A stretch of DNA of 33,445 nucleotides, taken from the IMG/VR virus record IMGVR_UViG_3300045988_112031, positions 1 through 33,445 of that record. One strand, 5' to 3'. The DNA comes from a virus. Lineage: Duplodnaviria > Heunggongvirae > Uroviricota > Caudoviricetes. The notes under the pieces are model-generated. The model searched no databases and was not told where the DNA came from. It saw only the letters and a program-made list of their open reading frames with translations. Of the stretch, positions 5,397-10,163 are shown one piece after another (positions within the stretch are counted from its first letter, which is position 1; each line of letters opens with the position of its first letter). A program made the position numbers and the translations under genes.

Positions 5397-5425
5397 AATA
5401 AAAAAGCCACCTATTAGAAGGTGGC
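5397..5425 (-). terminator. intrinsic terminator downstream of the tail-operon moron
   Basis: Minus-strand reading: GCCACC-loop-GGTGGC hairpin followed by a run of T (plus strand shows the A-run then the hairpin). Lies between the moron stop and the DNA-circulation gene. Coordinates approximate. Confidence 0.6.
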
Positions 5426-5445
5426 CTTGTAATGAATTTTATTAA

Positions 5446-5976
5446 TTAGCGAGTCAGAAACAACGAATCTTTATACTTTTGCTGTTGTTCATTTAAATAC
5501 TTAGCTGTTTCATCGCTGGCAAATGGAAATATTACCGTATTTTTAGGCATGGTAATTTCTTTTTTGTCCAGCGTCAGAGTAAACATAGGAACATACTGAG
5601 CAGAGTAACGCACCGCAGAAACGAGCTCTAGTTTAGACTCTTCAATAACACTTAAATTATCCAGGCTAACTTTCTCTTCATCTTTTTTCTTTGACGCATT
5701 TAAAGTTTTTATTACTTTATTTAATTTCTCCTGAAAATCCTCCTTAAAGTTTTCAGGATTGCCGTCGACAACAAGAATCTGTTCACCCTGATTATCTGGA
5801 AAAATAATCTTTGCACTTATCAATTTATTTTCTTTATAAACATCACCAAGTTTTATGGCTCCTCCAGATAACTGAATAATATGTTCATCTTTAAAGGAGA
5901 TGTTGCCAGAGATTATGAGAGATGAAAAAATAGCCGCTGCTCCAAGAATTACACTTGCTGTGATATAGCCTTTCAT
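5446..5976 (-). CDS. moron-encoded membrane-anchored hypothetical protein (candidate superinfection exclusion protein)
   Basis: 176 aa; N-terminal hydrophobic segment MKGYITASVILGAAAIFSSLIISG (signal anchor or signal peptide) then a K/E-rich soluble domain; visibly AT-rich compared with flanking tail genes; followed by its own terminator. Confidence 0.6.
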   Translation of the reverse strand: MKGYITASVILGAAAIFSSLIISGNISFKDEHIIQLSGGAIKLGDVYKENKLISAKIIFPDNQGEQILVVDGNPENFKEDFQEKLNKVIKTLNASKKKDEEKVSLDNLSVIEESKLELVSAVRYSAQYVPMFTLTLDKKEITMPKNTVIFPFASDETAKYLNEQQQKYKDSLFLTR

Positions 5977-6067
5977 TTTTCGCCTATTAACATTTTTCTA
6001 AATGTGCATTAATTCTATCACTCTATTTATGACTTACAACCAGCAAAACCTGTGAGGGGAATCCTGG

Positions 6068-7900
6068 CTACCAAAATCGGGTATAGCCAACATCGTGATT
6101 TATATCAATGCCACTGGAGCGTGTTTCCGTAACCCGCATACCTGATGGCATATTTATAAATGATACCTTGATCTCACCATCAACTTTTGGCGCGGTAGCT
6201 TTATTAATCATGAAAGGATTCGGGCCTGTGGCACCGGAGGCGTTGTTTGCCTGAGCCGGCTCCACCTCCGGATAAGGAGTGTATCCCCGTGGCGGTATTC
6301 CCGTCCCATAAGCATCATAAGCACCCGCGCCCCACTGCGCCGAGTTAATGGCATCGACCGTGTCACCGGAACTGTCGGTAAACCATTCAATAATCGGCTT
6401 CAGCTTATCCCACATATCCTGAAACCACTTAACAACCGGTCCCCAGTTATTGATCACCATCCCCAGCGGCGACCAGGCAAAAACCTTCTTCAGAAGTTCC
6501 CAGCCAGCCTCAAAATAAGGACTAATGGTTTCCCAGAGTTTCTTAAAATAAGGTCCGACAACATCCCAGTTAGTGATAATTAATCCCGCAGCCAGGGCAA
6601 TCGCCGTCGCAATCATGCCAATCGGCGTCATCGACATGATCCTGCTGACGATACTGATGGCACTGCCCACGCCCATCAATCCCAGTTTCAGAATCGCAAG
6701 ACCGGCAGCAAGCCCGACGACGCCGCGAATAACCCGGGGATTTTCATCCGCAAACTTCGTGAATTTTTCCCCTAACTCCCCCAGCCATTGCGTGATATTT
6801 TTGGCGTCACCAGAAAATGCGCCGCCAATAGCCGCAAGGCCGTTAGTTGCGGTCCCCGTCATTGCCTCCCACAGGTTGGACAGCGTACCAAGCTGTGCCT
6901 GAACACGTTTATTCAGGCTGGCCTGTTTATTCATCTTCTGCTGGATCTGATCGTAGCCATCCTTTCCTTTATCGATCAGCGCATTGACCACCTGAAGGGT
7001 TTCGGCATCATCACCAAACATTGCCTTAAGTACACCAGTTCGTTTAACGTCGGTCAGTTTTCGCAGCTTTGCCAGTTGCCTGAACATGTTATCAAGACCG
7101 CCAAAACTCCCTTTGCCATCAGTAAAATCGAGCTGTACCCCGAGTTTCTGACGGGCCATGACTTTATTGACGTCCCTGATTTTCTTAACGCTTAATCCGG
7201 ACTGGATAACTTTTCGCAGGGCGTTACCTGCCGACTCCCCGTTCATCCCCATCTGATCCATCATGACGCTGATGGGGGCAAGGCTCTGTGCAGCCTGAAG
7301 ACCGTCCTTGTTCACCATCTTCAGAACAGAACTGGTTTTAGTGAAGAAGGACAACATGTTGGTATCGTCAACGCCCAGATAAAACGCCTTCTGGATAGTG
7401 TCGAACAGCCCCATCATGTCTTCTGACGCCGTTCCGGTAGCATCCTGCATCTTTGCAGCAAACTCAGCAGCCGCTTCCGGTGTTTTTTTCAGTTGTACCG
7501 CAAGATAAGCTGTCGCTTTACCCACACCGCCAAGAATGTTTTCTGCCGGGATCCCCTGACGCACCAGCATCTGCATCATGTTCTGGAAATCAGCCGTTGT
7601 ACCGGGTAGCTGGTTACCCAGACCAATAGCCAGTTTATTGATGTCCTGAAAGCTCTTTCCGACCTCACCGTTCGCATCCATCATGGCAACTTTCAGCCCG
7701 GTGGCGGCGTTTTCCTGATCGGCATAAGATTTCAGGGAAAGCGTCAGCCCCGCTGCCAGTCCGCCACCAAGCGCCAGCCCACCCTGTGACGCTTCTTCCG
7801 CCTGGCGTTTAAATCCCCGGATTTTCTTTTGCATTTTCGACAGCGCGGGAGAAAGCCTGTCGACACCGGTGATCAACGCCTTAAGCTCAAATTCAGCCAT
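6068..7900 (-). CDS. tail tape measure protein
   Basis: 610 aa; Ala/Gly-rich helical N-terminus, hydrophobic central segments, W-rich C-terminus; preceded by the chaperone gene pair with a frameshift site. Confidence 0.85.
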   Translation of the reverse strand: MAEFELKALITGVDRLSPALSKMQKKIRGFKRQAEEASQGGLALGGGLAAGLTLSLKSYADQENAATGLKVAMMDANGEVGKSFQDINKLAIGLGNQLPGTTADFQNMMQMLVRQGIPAENILGGVGKATAYLAVQLKKTPEAAAEFAAKMQDATGTASEDMMGLFDTIQKAFYLGVDDTNMLSFFTKTSSVLKMVNKDGLQAAQSLAPISVMMDQMGMNGESAGNALRKVIQSGLSVKKIRDVNKVMARQKLGVQLDFTDGKGSFGGLDNMFRQLAKLRKLTDVKRTGVLKAMFGDDAETLQVVNALIDKGKDGYDQIQQKMNKQASLNKRVQAQLGTLSNLWEAMTGTATNGLAAIGGAFSGDAKNITQWLGELGEKFTKFADENPRVIRGVVGLAAGLAILKLGLMGVGSAISIVSRIMSMTPIGMIATAIALAAGLIITNWDVVGPYFKKLWETISPYFEAGWELLKKVFAWSPLGMVINNWGPVVKWFQDMWDKLKPIIEWFTDSSGDTVDAINSAQWGAGAYDAYGTGIPPRGYTPYPEVEPAQANNASGATGPNPFMINKATAPKVDGEIKVSFINMPSGMRVTETRSSGIDINHDVGYTRFW

Positions 7901-8075
7901 GTGTGCGTTTCTCCTGCTCTATCCTGTTTGCCTGACTGACCAGCAAGGGAATTTCACTGATCGGCATATTCAGCAATTCGAAGGGATTAATGCGCCAGTA
8001 ACTGGCGCAGTCAAAGAAGCGATCAGTGAGGTATTCAGCCGTCAGGCCTGGAGGAAAAAACCGGCCACAAGCCAC
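7893..8075 (-). CDS. tail assembly chaperone, -1 frameshift extension (C-terminal part of the fusion product)
   Basis: ORF in the -1 frame relative to 8042-8311 and overlapping its 3' end; the overlap contains a T_TTT_TTC slippery heptamer; classic arrangement upstream of a tape measure gene. Confidence 0.5.
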   Translation of the reverse strand: MACGRFFPPGLTAEYLTDRFFDCASYWRINPFELLNMPISEIPLLVSQANRIEQEKRTHG

Positions 8076-8311
8076 GCCGCTGCATTCAGGTCTGCCGGAG
8101 ACATCTGGTCGACAGAGCTTTGCGGCACTTTCGCCAGCCGCACAATGTATTTCGACACCACATGCGCCAGAAGTCTGACTGACTCATCCTGATTCATCTG
8201 GTAGGGATACCCCAGCTCGCGGACATCCTTCCCGGTGGGCTCATCAAACTCCAGTACGGAGAGTGTCTCGCCATGAGCAGTAATCGGTTTCTTTAACTCA
8301 AGCTCTTTCAT
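8042..8311 (-). CDS. tail assembly chaperone (Mu gp41-like)
   Basis: 89 aa acidic protein between tail tube and tape measure; 3' end overlaps the frameshift extension ORF. Confidence 0.6.
   Translation of the reverse strand: MKELELKKPITAHGETLSVLEFDEPTGKDVRELGYPYQMNQDESVRLLAHVVSKYIVRLAKVPQSSVDQMSPADLNAAAWLVAGFFLQA
8054..8060 (-). other. candidate -1 programmed ribosomal frameshift slippery site (T TTT TTC on minus strand)
   Basis: Plus strand gaaaaaa; in the chaperone zero frame the codons read ggT TTT TTC; a -1 slip enters the frame of ORF 7893-8075 (..GRFFPPGLTAEYL..). Coordinates approximate. Confidence 0.5.
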
Positions 8312-8667
8312 TACTGGTAATCCCCTTCTTCACCGTGGAACTCAAGATCAACCGTGCCTTCTTCGGCATTATGGTTCGCTTCGCCGTGCAGCCATGCAGA
8401 CGACAGTACATAGACCTGACCGTTCGCCAGCTCGGCAGTGATTGTCATCTCATCAGACGAGGTGATTTTGCTCACAGGAAAATTCTTCGGCACCTTGAAG
8501 GTTCCTTTAACATAAGGCGCACGGTGAGTTTCCTTGCGGTCCACTGAACCGTCCAGGCCGATGATGTCATCATTGACCGTCCTGTTCATGGGCACCTCAA
8601 TGCCGCCGGTCAGCGATAGCTGCTGACCGTCAATTTTGAAATAACAGGTTCCCCCGATACGGGCCAT
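8311..8667 (-). CDS. tail tube protein (Mu M-like)
   Basis: 118 aa immediately downstream of the sheath gene; ATG overlaps the sheath stop (TAATG). Confidence 0.7.
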   Translation of the reverse strand: MARIGGTCYFKIDGQQLSLTGGIEVPMNRTVNDDIIGLDGSVDRKETHRAPYVKGTFKVPKNFPVSKITSSDEMTITAELANGQVYVLSSAWLHGEANHNAEEGTVDLEFHGEEGDYQ

Positions 8668-10163
8668 TATGCGGACTCCTCTGAATACTGAAGACGGAAC
8701 TGGTTAACCACGGCAAAGACACGCAACTGGTTAACATAGTCAGGCGGGAACAGCGTGTTCAGGCGGTTCGGTTCGCTGGCATCACGCTCCACAACCAGGT
8801 ACTGCTTGAACAGTTCGTAGTTTTCCACGATCCCCGCACGCTCAAGCTGACGGTAGGTTGCCAGCAGTTCCCCTTTGATCACCGCCGGGGTGACAATCGC
8901 CTGACCGGGACCAAAGCGGGTACCGTCGCTGGCAAGCTTGTGACGCCCGTACTTACTGGTAATGACGGATTTCAGTTTGCGCAGTACATACGCGCTGGTA
9001 TGCAGCGTCTCGCTGTCGAGGTAGCTGTTATCCGTAACCCCGTAAGCATTTTTCCTGTACGTGGTGACATCACGCTGAATGCGCAGCACCCCGCTTTCGA
9101 CATACGCCGTTGCCACGCCATGAGACAGCAGGGTCTGCTGCTCGGTCATCGTGAACCGTTTCCCCTTCGGCGCAGGCAGCATACCCACCAGCTCACCGGT
9201 CTGCGTGGGACGTGCCGGATCGTTGCGGATAAACACCGCTGCGCGGGCGGTACGGCTTGCCACCAGCTCGTCGGCAGGTGTCTGGGTTTCTTTTTCGTAC
9301 CCCGCCAGGGTAATGTGCTGCTGGTTAAACTGGTCACCTGCGGTCACCAGTTCTGACAGTGTGCCGGTCTTTGCCGTATACACATGACCATACAGCTGAC
9401 GCGCATAGCTCCAGCGACCGCTGGTATCGTTCATCTCGGTCACCAGCGTGTTAACGGAGGCCGTGTCGTTGAACGGCAGACCGATATAATCAAACGGCTC
9501 ATCCGCCATTGCAGCCACCGCGCCGGTGAGAACCGGAGCGCCCGTTCCGGCGGTACCCGTCGCCACAGCAATCTGTACGCCCGCTGGCAGCACTTCGCCA
9601 CCACCAAAGCCGTAGTAATTGAGGCTGACAGGAATTTCATTCCCGCAAAGCCCCTTATGACGCGCGGTCAGCGTGACCACGCCTGCCGAAGATGAAGCCG
9701 TAAACGGCAGGGTCGGAACGGCATTGATGGCATCCTGGATACTGCTGGCAATCATCGTGACGTTATCGCCGTTAGTCACCAGTGCCTGCACGCGGGTACG
9801 TCCCACATACACATTCACCGTGCCGGTTTCGGTTGCCGCCCCGGTCACCGTCAGCGTAACCGTTGCCGCCGCGCCTGTGGCTTCCGGAACGGCAATCACA
9901 TACAGCTCGCCAAACGGGTCAGTCTGGCGATAAGCCTCGACCATACGCGCCAGCTGACTTCCCGCACCACAAATCTGGCGTGCATAGTCTGCCGACGGCA
10001 TCAGCACCAGACTGTTGGCAACAATCTCTGCACCGTTATTGGCGTGACCAATCAGCAACGATGCCCCGCTGTCCTGTGCAGTATTCGCCGCCTGGTTATC
10101 CATTTCCGCATAAAACAGCGGAACCAGCGTATTCGACGGAATGGTGTTAAAGCTTATCGTCAT
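8667..10163 (-). CDS. tail sheath protein (Mu L-like)
   Basis: 498 aa, typical sheath size and position upstream of tube and chaperone. Confidence 0.8.
   Translation of the reverse strand: MTISFNTIPSNTLVPLFYAEMDNQAANTAQDSGASLLIGHANNGAEIVANSLVLMPSADYARQICGAGSQLARMVEAYRQTDPFGELYVIAVPEATGAAATVTLTVTGAATETGTVNVYVGRTRVQALVTNGDNVTMIASSIQDAINAVPTLPFTASSSAGVVTLTARHKGLCGNEIPVSLNYYGFGGGEVLPAGVQIAVATGTAGTGAPVLTGAVAAMADEPFDYIGLPFNDTASVNTLVTEMNDTSGRWSYARQLYGHVYTAKTGTLSELVTAGDQFNQQHITLAGYEKETQTPADELVASRTARAAVFIRNDPARPTQTGELVGMLPAPKGKRFTMTEQQTLLSHGVATAYVESGVLRIQRDVTTYRKNAYGVTDNSYLDSETLHTSAYVLRKLKSVITSKYGRHKLASDGTRFGPGQAIVTPAVIKGELLATYRQLERAGIVENYELFKQYLVVERDASEPNRLNTLFPPDYVNQLRVFAVVNQFRLQYSEESA

Follow-up and report, generated by a model that had tools for sequence, protein, structure and literature searches.

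A predicted P2 E/E+E'-type -1 ribosomal frameshift in an SfV-like phage's tail assembly chaperone gene

Introduction

Tail assembly chaperones that are extended by a -1 frameshift represent a textbook expression strategy of bacteriophages P2 and lambda. In lambda, a low-level -1 shift close to the gene's 3' end yields two products at a fixed ratio of ~30:1, the shared part of which binds the tape measure protein while the extension binds the tube subunit, and neither product is found in the virion (PMC5009743). A recoded tail chaperone, gp41, is also encoded by phage Mu, where it is flanked by the genes for the Mu-type tube (gpM) and the tape measure protein, and where a -2 shift is employed (PMC5009743; PMC2628397). 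Of most relevance here is P2, for which the E+E' protein is annotated in RefSeq with a -1 frameshift, whereas the E+E' protein described below is predicted from sequence.

The DNA under consideration, hereafter referred to as the window, is a 33,445-nucleotide stretch from a virus of the Caudoviricetes (IMG/VR record IMGVR_UViG_3300045988_112031). From its letters alone it had been proposed that two overlapping open reading frames upstream of the tape measure gene encode a tail assembly chaperone and that they are joined by a -1 slip at a T_TTT_TTC heptamer. Here we describe a computational analysis of the locus. On the comparative evidence we favor, with considerable confidence, a programmed -1 ribosomal frameshift like those of P2 E/E+E' and lambda G/GT.

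Results

Organization of the locus

The features of the locus are listed in Table 1. The genes are ordered tube, E, and tape measure, with the stop codon of the tube gene overlapping the start of E. The two overlapping frames of the original prediction are indeed present upstream of the tape measure gene, and the segment assigned to them, 7893-8311, is their exact union. The heptamer lies in the X_XXY_YYZ phase within the final six codons of E and ends 9 nt upstream of the E stop codon, the zero-frame reading at the end of E being GGT TTT TTC CTC CAG GCC TGA. After a slip, reading would restart at C8054 (CCT CCA GGC...) and continue for 53 codons to the stop of E', with a predicted E+E' junction peptide of ...WLVAGFFPPGLTAEYLTDR. 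The E' stop overlaps the tape measure ATG (7900..7898) by 8 nt (ATGGCTGA). Frame 0 and the open -1 frame coincide over 139 nt, in which T_TTT_TTC is the sole in-phase heptamer. The +1 frame is shut two codons past the E stop. A GTG codon at 8075 occurs in the -1 frame, five codons ahead of the heptamer.

Table 1 Features of the tail assembly chaperone locus (window coordinates)
Feature	Coordinates	Strand	Details
Tail sheath gene (context)	8667..10163	minus	498 aa; PF04984, PF17482, PF17481; phrog_165
Tail tube gene	8311..8667	minus	118 aa; PF10618 Tail_tube 114.9 bits; phrog_185
Gene E, tail assembly chaperone (zero frame)	8311..8042	minus	89 aa; C-terminus ...AAWLVAGFFLQA*; TGA 8044..8042
Slippery heptamer T_TTT_TTC	8060..8054	minus	Codons GGT TTT TTC = Gly84 Phe85 Phe86; from sequence
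E' extension (-1 frame)	7893..8054	minus	53 codons, PPGLTAEY...EKRTHG, and TGA 7895..7893; predicted, accessible via the shift only
Second ORF (-1 frame, GTG start)	8075..7893	minus	60 aa; from the ORF list
E+E' predicted frameshift product	7893..8311	minus	139 aa = 86 aa in frame 0 + 53 aa in frame -1
Hairpin UGCGCCAG-UUA-CUGGCGCA	7991..8009	minus	dG -11.4 kcal/mol; 45 nt past the heptamer
Tail tape measure gene	6068..7900	minus	610 aa; PF10145 PhageMin_Tail 93.7 bits; TIGR01760 tape_meas_TP901 171.7 bits

The window contains 14 copies of TTTTTTC versus 8.26 ± 2.65 expected, a number reached in 4 of 100 shuffles, and 49 copies of TTTTTT versus 32 expected. These counts are uninformative alone, and heptamer frequency was dropped as a line of evidence. 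The probability of a 53-codon open frame arising by chance is roughly 0.08. A scan of the 92 ORFs in the window of at least 80 aa revealed 49 in-phase heptamers, and for only four of these would a -1 slip carry translation 20 or more codons beyond the stop; the three besides the present site belong to ORFs antisense to real genes. The abundance of the heptamer, the ~8% chance of such an open frame, and the absence of the site from the SfV RefSeq and PGAP annotations would all be in keeping with a non-functional relic or coincidence, only the 89-aa protein being of consequence. The feature stands above chance because of where it lies and because homologues retain it, as considered below.

Protein family assignments

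E matches PF10109 (Phage_TAC_7) with an E-value of 1.9e-16 and a score of 60.3 bits (gathering cutoff 25), which, together with the location of its gene between those for the tube and the tape measure, bears out the identification of the first ORF as a tail assembly chaperone. The match extends from residues 4 to 86 (profile positions 2 to 78/79), and thus the domain of E ends at the slip site. PF10109 is the only Pfam family matched, with no PF23746 (Gp41_Mu) assignment. E additionally matches phrog_166 ('tail protein'), and a protein identical to it is labeled by PGAP as 'phage tail assembly protein'.

E' matches phrog_32181 with an E-value of 4e-40, and its A-x-[FY]-W-[RK]-x-[ND]-P motif is kept down to ~30% identity. 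Against PF06528 (Phage_P2_GpE, cutoff 23), the window E' alone gave no hit, a Bordetella phage relative scored 15.8 bits, and P2 E' scored 78.7 bits. A search of solved structures by sequence gave no match below E = 0.1.

An hhalign comparison of the fusion-family profile with P2 E+E' resulted in a probability of 95% and an E-value of 3.5e-8 over 122 columns that run across the junction. The VAGFF segment aligns with VVGFL of P2, placing the slip sites in register (GGT TTT TTC versus GGT TTT TTG). The further proposal that the locus follows the conserved expression strategy of tail assembly chaperones is in accord with this alignment, the P2 frameshift being annotated at the equivalent residue.

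Conservation of the slip site

Conservation of the heptamer in homologues had been set beforehand as a test of the prediction. In all 80 loci from different species, an in-phase T6 run (TTTTTTC in 78, TTTTTTT in two) leads into a -1 frame that stays open for at least 51 codons, and the same arrangement is found in 12 phage lineages (11 and YeP1) down to ~30% identity. Phages carrying the site, at 29-76% identity, include EPP-1, AH07, F1055, ST64B, SfIV, phiP27, BgVeeders33, DVM-2008, PG1, PBb002, and YeP1. When P0190, P0177, and P0164 were scanned singly against viral and metagenome contigs for more distant homologues, none was found. The T6 run recurs, as does the 89-aa protein, in SfV, SfI, and SfII, and of 5,426 complete E. 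coli genomes about 1,086 contain the region at 95-99% identity; given this recurrence, the site is not an assembly error.

Codon usage was considered for 69 loci outside the enteric group, the mean GC content of which is 61%. The codon preceding the site ends in T in all 69 (GGT in 38, AGT in 29, and CGT in two), versus an overall T frequency of 18% at third positions. Likewise, the first Phe codon is TTT in 69 of 69, while TTT accounts for 31% of the Phe codons in these loci. As judged from these sequences, the persistence of the T run in GC-rich hosts against codon bias is nucleotide-level selection for a slippery site.

The MGFFG clade serves, at the sequence level, as a natural loss-of-site control for the frame relation. 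Four of its members (L102-L105) have E' in the -1 frame and retain GGT TTT TTC. In the sister loci L100, L101, and L011 the same residues are encoded by GGC TTC TTC, the T run having been lost, and E' either occupies the +1 frame or, where it is in the -1 frame, has an overlap of only 7 nt.

The variability at the first, second, and third codon positions is 0.112, 0.064, and 0.377 for frame 0 upstream of the site and 0.128, 0.075, and 0.281 for frame -1 past the E stop. By this comparative measure the coding signature moves from frame 0 to frame -1 past the site, and the -1 frame is under purifying selection. The claim that a -1 slip at T TTT TTC joins the two frames thus gains support, in that the heptamer at the end of the first ORF is in phase and within the overlap of frames 0 and -1, and the latter frame evolves as coding sequence. 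Across the loci, the zone in which a transition from frame 0 to frame -1 is possible extends from 9-21 nt upstream of the heptamer to 9 nt downstream of it. The relic or coincidence reading introduced above is effectively refuted by the heptamer conservation (80 of 80 loci), by the P2 alignment, including E' motifs that are kept to ~30% identity and match P2 E', and by the purifying selection on the -1 frame; we consider it next to impossible.

A second alternative dispenses with recoding altogether and treats the second ORF as an independent 60-aa gene initiated at its own GTG 8075, as it appears in the ORF list. The ORF is annotated as a separate hypothetical protein in ON470584, and it has been called as a stand-alone gene in phrog_32181 and in proteins like P0226. 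There is no Shine-Dalgarno-like sequence ahead of GTG 8075, however, and 60 of 91 homologous loci lack any ATG, GTG, or TTG in the part of the -1 frame that separates the heptamer from the stop before it. Nor does E' contain a conserved Met. An independent gene would also leave unexplained both the conservation of GGT TTT TTY against codon bias and the loss of the site upon a changed frame relation, and on these grounds it is regarded as very improbable.

No bona fide in-frame E-E' fusion was observed among the best 150 of 549 representatives. Matches to E-type proteins stop at approximately query residues 86-98, namely at or just beyond the slip site. Three 'fused' proteins of 137-139 aa (P0001-P0003) contain scattered indels and were set aside as noisy assemblies rather than natural fusions; homologues of 174-221 aa that were considered as E-E' fusions proved to be tandem E-E duplications.

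RNA structure and stimulatory elements

The original prediction had suggested a search for a stimulatory RNA structure downstream of the heptamer, and in this regard the outcome was negative: none was found at the canonical spacing, with z scores of -1.05 (90 nt) and +0.71 (50 nt), and the median z of 0.06 over 67 distinct homologues led to the rejection of a conserved stimulator. A 4-bp GGCC/GGCU hairpin with a 5-nt spacer was discarded as it is not conserved. No SD-like sequence was seen in the 20 nt upstream of the heptamer. The locus thus shows neither the structure 5-9 nt downstream nor the SD-like sequence 6-17 nt upstream, one or both of which define stimulated cassettes of the dnaX/IS3 type. 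P2 has likewise been reported without a downstream structure (PMC3091744).

The 8-bp hairpin at 8009-7991 is not present outside the enteric SfV group. In 11 enteric sequences, four of four degenerate third positions in its stem are invariant (versus 12 of 53 invariant overall), and the third position in its loop varies. The distance of 45 nt from the heptamer is too great for a classical stimulator, which the hairpin is probably not, and thus any role would be unconventional, for example the pausing of a leading ribosome.

With respect to the heptamer itself, H_HH.U_UU.Y sequences are among the most shift-prone in E. coli, and some IS elements employ U_UU.U_UU.C (PMC4066793). Bare UUUUUUC gave only 0.12% shifting in a reporter assay in E. 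coli, with values of 0.89% and 7.6% in the presence of stimulators (PMC4066793 supplement). For the lambda-type GGGAAAG the value in that reporter was 0.28%, and yet lambda makes gpG and gpGT at ~30:1, so the reporter may understate the efficiency of native sites.

Ribosome or RNA polymerase

A third alternative is transcriptional slippage, in which RNA polymerase would occasionally add one extra U on the T6 run, and the resulting U7 mRNA would encode the same E+E' protein (GGU UUU UUU CCU CCA = GFFPP). A homopolymer is present at the site in every homologue examined, and it is T7 in the group of ST64B, SfIV, phiP27, and YeP1 and in two metagenome-assembled genome loci. In E. coli genes, U7 and A7 runs are under-represented in all three frames, which has been attributed in part to transcriptional slippage and lends this alternative some weight (PMC4066793). 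The protein product is identical by either route, and comparative sequence data cannot separate polymerase from ribosome; mass spectrometry likewise cannot tell the two apart, since both yield ...GFF-PPG....

Against slippage by the polymerase, the run is fixed at exactly six in 78 of 80 loci and is not lengthening. Appreciable slippage by bacterial polymerases has in general been described for longer runs, as reportedly by Baranov and colleagues in 2005. Moreover, the homologous P2 site is annotated as a -1 translational frameshift, and the heptamer is variable at its final position (C, T, or G), as fits the re-pairing of an A-site codon with UUU. Together these points are not decisive, but transcriptional slippage appears unlikely relative to a ribosomal event.

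Discussion

We infer that the shift is ribosomal, and its efficiency probably lies around 1% or a few per cent. In the mechanism proposed, most ribosomes would read through the heptamer without slipping and release the 89-aa E protein at the TGA. In a minority, the tRNA-Phe molecules on the P-site UUU and A-site UUC codons would slip back by one base and both re-pair with UUU, and reading would go on at CCU CCA GGC... for 53 codons to give the 139-aa E+E' protein. By homology, the shared E part would bind the tape measure protein and E' would recruit the tube. E and E+E', produced at a fixed ratio, would by analogy chaperone tail assembly and stay out of the virion.

There is a slim chance that the shift at the bare T6 run is largely polymerase slippage or, in the enteric SfV group, that it is tuned by the 8009-7991 hairpin; in a wider form of this proposal, the family would switch between -1 and +1/-2 recoding among close lineages (compare the MGFFG clade).

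As a frameshift site, the locus in SfV-like E. coli prophages is ordinary biology and introduces no new principle. Its main value is for annotation. E+E' (139 aa) is probably an essential tail protein, and it is missing from both the SfV RefSeq record and the one PGAP-annotated E. coli record inspected; in each of them, 141 nt separating the chaperone gene from the tape measure gene have the look of non-coding sequence. Conserved -1 heptamers have been screened for genome-wide in E. coli, and the present cluster is not among the five prophage clusters listed (PMC4066793 supplement). No experimental report of E+E' in SfV-like phages was found in the literature searched for SfV and frameshift, although SfV might be among the 28 'Xu phages' (Xu et al. 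2004). The locus also provides a clean comparative example of slippery-site selection against host codon bias, complete with a natural loss-of-site control.

Comparison with known systems

The similarity to P2 extends beyond the alignment of the fusion proteins, even though the pairwise identity is below the reach of BLASTP (E = 0.56). P2 E matches PF10109 with 47.8 bits versus 60.3 bits for the window E, and in both proteins the domain ends at the slip site. The product sizes are 91 and 142 aa in P2 versus 89 and 139 aa here, and P2 shares both the tube - E - tape measure order and the 8-nt overlap between the E+E' stop and the start of T. Within E', FHWPP of P2 aligns with FWRxNP of the present family. 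The P2 heptamer T_TTT_TTG, in the FETUD tail operon, ends in G, which places a Leu UUG codon in the A site, whereas that of the window ends in C, with a Phe UUC codon. Unlike P2, the sheath and tube of the window are annotated as Mu-like and the head as HK97-like.

More precisely, the annotated resemblance is to Mu L for the sheath and to Mu M for the tube, and gp41 of Mu is encoded in the same slot as E. Mu gp41 nevertheless belongs to PF23746 and falls narrowly below the PF10109 cutoff (24.7 bits versus 25); this membership and an hhalign probability of 0.6% rule it out as the closest relative. With a Mu-like sheath and tube and no similarity to Mu gp41, the window would encode a Mu-like tail with a P2-type chaperone.

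The lambda G/GT gene, located between the genes for the major tail protein and the tape measure protein, has the same placement as E, but lambda differs in its non-contractile tail, its G_GGA_AAG heptamer, and the assignment of its chaperone to another Pfam family. The IS3/IS1-family and dnaX cassettes of E. coli also contain X_XXY_YYZ heptamers for tandem slippage. Those sites usually depend on an SD-like sequence upstream, on a hairpin or pseudoknot downstream, or on both, and neither kind of element was found at canonical spacing here.

Gene layout and anatomy of the slip site

The structural genes of the window lie on its minus strand, as listed in the table below. The 89-residue ORF, referred to as E, is a tail assembly chaperone, with a PF10109 match that scores 60.3 bits (cutoff 25) and ends at residue 86. 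Its terminal codons read GCC GGT TTT TTC CTC CAG GCC TGA, with the heptamer T_TTT_TTC in the phase X_XXY_YYZ relative to the E codons. From C8054 the -1 frame proceeds as CCT CCA GGC and stays open for 53 codons (the extension E'), ending at a TGA within the ATGGCTGA overlap with the tape measure start codon. Two products are predicted: E, with 89 residues, and E+E', with 139 residues and a junction at which ...AGFF is followed by PPGL.... This reading of ORFs and codons agrees with the original prediction in its coordinates and in its description of two ORFs sharing a T_TTT_TTC heptamer.

Features of the window, with three homologous loci that have no T run
Feature	Positions	Strand	Description
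Tail sheath	10163-8667	-	498 aa; PF04984, PF17482, PF17481
Tail tube	8667-8311	-	118 aa; PF10618
E, tail assembly chaperone	8311-8042	-	89 aa; PF10109 Phage_TAC_7
T_TTT_TTC heptamer	8060-8054	-	slip site
Stretch between E and tape measure	8041-7901	-	141 nt; left blank in several public records
Hairpin	8009-7991	-	perfect, 8 bp; dG -11.4 kcal/mol
TGA of E'	7895-7893	-	stop codon
Tape measure gene	7900-6068	-	610 aa; PF10145, TIGR01760
Low-GC island	5400-6000		GC 0.32-0.35, about 0.52 around
ORF in island	5976-5446	-	176 aa; N-terminal hydrophobic segment
DNA-circularisation-like tail gene	5390-4056		PF07157
C4 antisense RNA	26991-27078	-	Rfam, gathering score reached, 77.8 bits
isrK Hfq-binding RNA	27103-27179	-	Rfam, gathering score reached, 78.7 bits
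L100	1139-1399		metagenome contig
L101	1142-1387		metagenome contig
L011	1085-1300		unverified Paraburkholderia phage IPK record

Identity of the region is 98.5% to orf12-orf14 of Shigella phage SfV and about 98% to SfI and SfII, and about 1,086 of 5,426 complete E. coli genomes carry it at 95-99% identity. An assembly error is ruled out as the source of the T6 run by the clusters of the 89-residue protein, which contain hundreds of identical copies. A frameshift annotation is missing from both the SfV RefSeq record and the PGAP-annotated E. coli record inspected, and in one phage record the second ORF is entered as a separate hypothetical protein. The SfV frameshift may already be listed in Xu et al. 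2004 or Christie et al. 2002.

Downstream of the tape measure gene, and before the DNA-circularisation-like gene, the low-GC island encloses an ORF whose phrog_5485 match is to a family of unknown function; Pfam and PADLOC gave no match. A megablast search of the phage collection returned nothing for this ORF, which SfV, SfI, and SfII therefore lack; it resembles a moron or cargo gene. In the prophage early region, the paired C4 and isrK elements suggest a putative antisense immunity cassette of the P1/P7 c4-like type.

Conservation of the heptamer and of the -1 frame

By itself the heptamer is not more than chance: the window has 14 copies of TTTTTTC where 8.3 are expected, and the chance of an open 53-codon frame is roughly 8%. 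A scan of the whole window found 49 in-phase heptamers among 92 ORFs of at least 80 residues. A -1 product reaching at least 20 codons past the stop follows only four of these, three of which lie in ORFs antisense to real genes. The case therefore rests on comparative evidence.

An in-phase T_TTT_TTN within the 0/-1 overlap was found in 11 distinct phage lineages at 29-76% identity (SfV, EPP-1, Pantoea AH07, F1055, ST64B, SfIV, phiP27, Burkholderia BgVeeders33, Pseudomonas DVM-2008, PG1, and Bordetella PBb002), in each of which the -1 frame reaches the tape measure start; Yersinia phage YeP1 provides a twelfth lineage with the site. When one genome per species was scanned, the site was present in 80 of 80 loci, as TTTTTTC in 78 and TTTTTTT in two, with at least 51 open -1 codons after it in all, and the heptamer is thus kept in homologues. 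Taken over all loci, a transition from frame 0 to -1 could occur only within a narrow interval, from about 9-21 nt before the heptamer to 9 nt after it.

Outside the enteric group there are 69 loci (mean GC 61%), and in these the codon before the heptamer invariably ends in T (GGT, AGT, or CGT), a base found at only 18% of third positions, and the first Phe codon is invariably TTT, which accounts for only 31% of Phe codons. Independent initiation of the second ORF at GTG 8075 would leave this selection on the T run unexplained; the GTG is not conserved and has no SD-like sequence, and such a start is unlikely. No -1-frame start codon lies upstream of the heptamer in 60 of 91 loci. In 13 enteric sequences, frame 0 upstream of the site shows variability of 0.11/0.06/0.38 at the three codon positions, and frame -1, past the E stop, shows 0.13/0.075/0.28; the heptamer and a 16-nt dual-coding stretch are nearly invariant. 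This coding signature excludes the view that the open -1 frame is a relic.

Among the best 150 of 549 protein representatives there is no bona fide in-frame E-E' fusion, and, noisy assemblies and two stand-alone E' calls excepted, the matches end near residues 86-98, at the slip site or shortly after it. Six apparent full-length fusions in public assemblies (P0001-P0006) are singletons with indels at varying positions, consistent with homopolymer and indel errors of noisy assemblies rather than with real in-frame genes. Other long homologues of 174-221 residues (P0131, P0132, P0142, P0150, P0161, P0210, and P0228) were rejected as fusions; each carries the E chaperone domain duplicated in tandem, and most of the halves stop at or near a [GS]FF-type motif.

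The clade of E homologues with the residues MGFFG provides a natural control. Four metagenome loci (L102-L105) encode them with ATG GGT TTT TTC and place E' in the -1 frame. L100, L101, and L011, the nearest relatives of these loci and 53-87% identical to relatives with the -1 shift, have lost the T run and encode the same residues as ATG GGC TTC TTC; their E'-like ORF is in the +1 frame, except that in IPK it is in the -1 frame and overlaps by only 7 nt. Within this clade the T run is thus retained just where a -1 slip at Gly-Phe-Phe makes the junction. For L100, L101, and L011 the sequences imply another route to E', possibly a +1/-2 shift or something else.

Mechanism and stimulators

Slippage of RNA polymerase on the T run would yield an identical protein (GGU UUU UUU CCU, or G F F P), inseparable from that of a ribosomal slip by sequence comparison or mass spectrometry; we regard it as improbable. 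For the favored ribosomal slip, tRNA-Phe would shift in tandem by -1 from UUU UUC to UUU UUU. In E. coli, H_HH.U_UU.Y heptamers are among the most shift-prone, the A-site tetramers ranking A_AA.G > U_UU.Y > C_CC.Y (PMC4066793). The downstream stimulatory RNA structure raised with the original prediction was not found, either at the window site (z = -1.05 and +0.71) or over 67 homologues (median z = 0.06), and no SD-like sequence was seen upstream of the heptamer in the window. P2 is likewise reported to lack a downstream structure (PMC3091744). In a reporter, shifting at bare UUUUUUC was 0.12%, rising to 0.9% with the IS911 stimulators and to 7.6% with those of IS3, and the bare lambda heptamer GGGAAAG gave 0.28% (PMC4066793). 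Because lambda reaches a gpG to gpGT ratio of about 30:1 (PMC5009743) despite that value, the native efficiency at the window site would lie at roughly one to a few per cent. If the roles of lambda G and GT carry over (PMC5009743), E would bind the tape measure and E' would recruit the tube.

A hairpin, UGCGCCAG-UUA-CUGGCGCA, begins 45 nt past the heptamer, a greater distance than a classical -1 stimulator would have, and its sequence specifies the conserved C-A-S-Y-W-R of E'. All four degenerate third positions of its stem are invariant in 11 enteric sequences, compared with only 12 of 53 third positions overall, and the third position in the loop varies. No such hairpin occurs outside the enteric group.

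Comparison with P2, Mu, and lambda-type systems

Conservation, the coding signature, and homology to P2 E+E' together support the original prediction of a programmed -1 frameshift in the tail chaperone, here belonging to an SfV-like prophage, and place it in the P2 type. The frameshift is of a well-known kind, and this newly seen, unannotated instance matters little beyond annotation. The P2 record annotates E (91 residues) and E+E' (142 residues) with a -1 translational frameshift, and in both P2 and the window the E+E' stop overlaps the start of the tape measure gene (T in P2) by 8 nt. The P2 site reads GTC GGT TTT TTG and that of the window GCC GGT TTT TTC. A profile built from ten reconstructed fusion proteins aligned by hhalign with P2 E+E' over 122 columns and both domains (95% probability, E=3.5e-8), placing VAGFF of the family opposite VVGFL of P2. 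Pairwise BLASTP of the window protein against P2 was not significant, and the window E' by itself falls below the PF06528 cutoff. The sheath and tube are most often cited as similar to those of Mu, but the Mu chaperone gp41, for which a -2 shift is reported (PMC5009743, PMC2628397), is a member of PF23746 and shows no similarity to the window's chaperone family at the profile level. The window thus combines an HK97-type capsid protein and a Mu-like sheath and tube with a predicted P2-type recoded chaperone.
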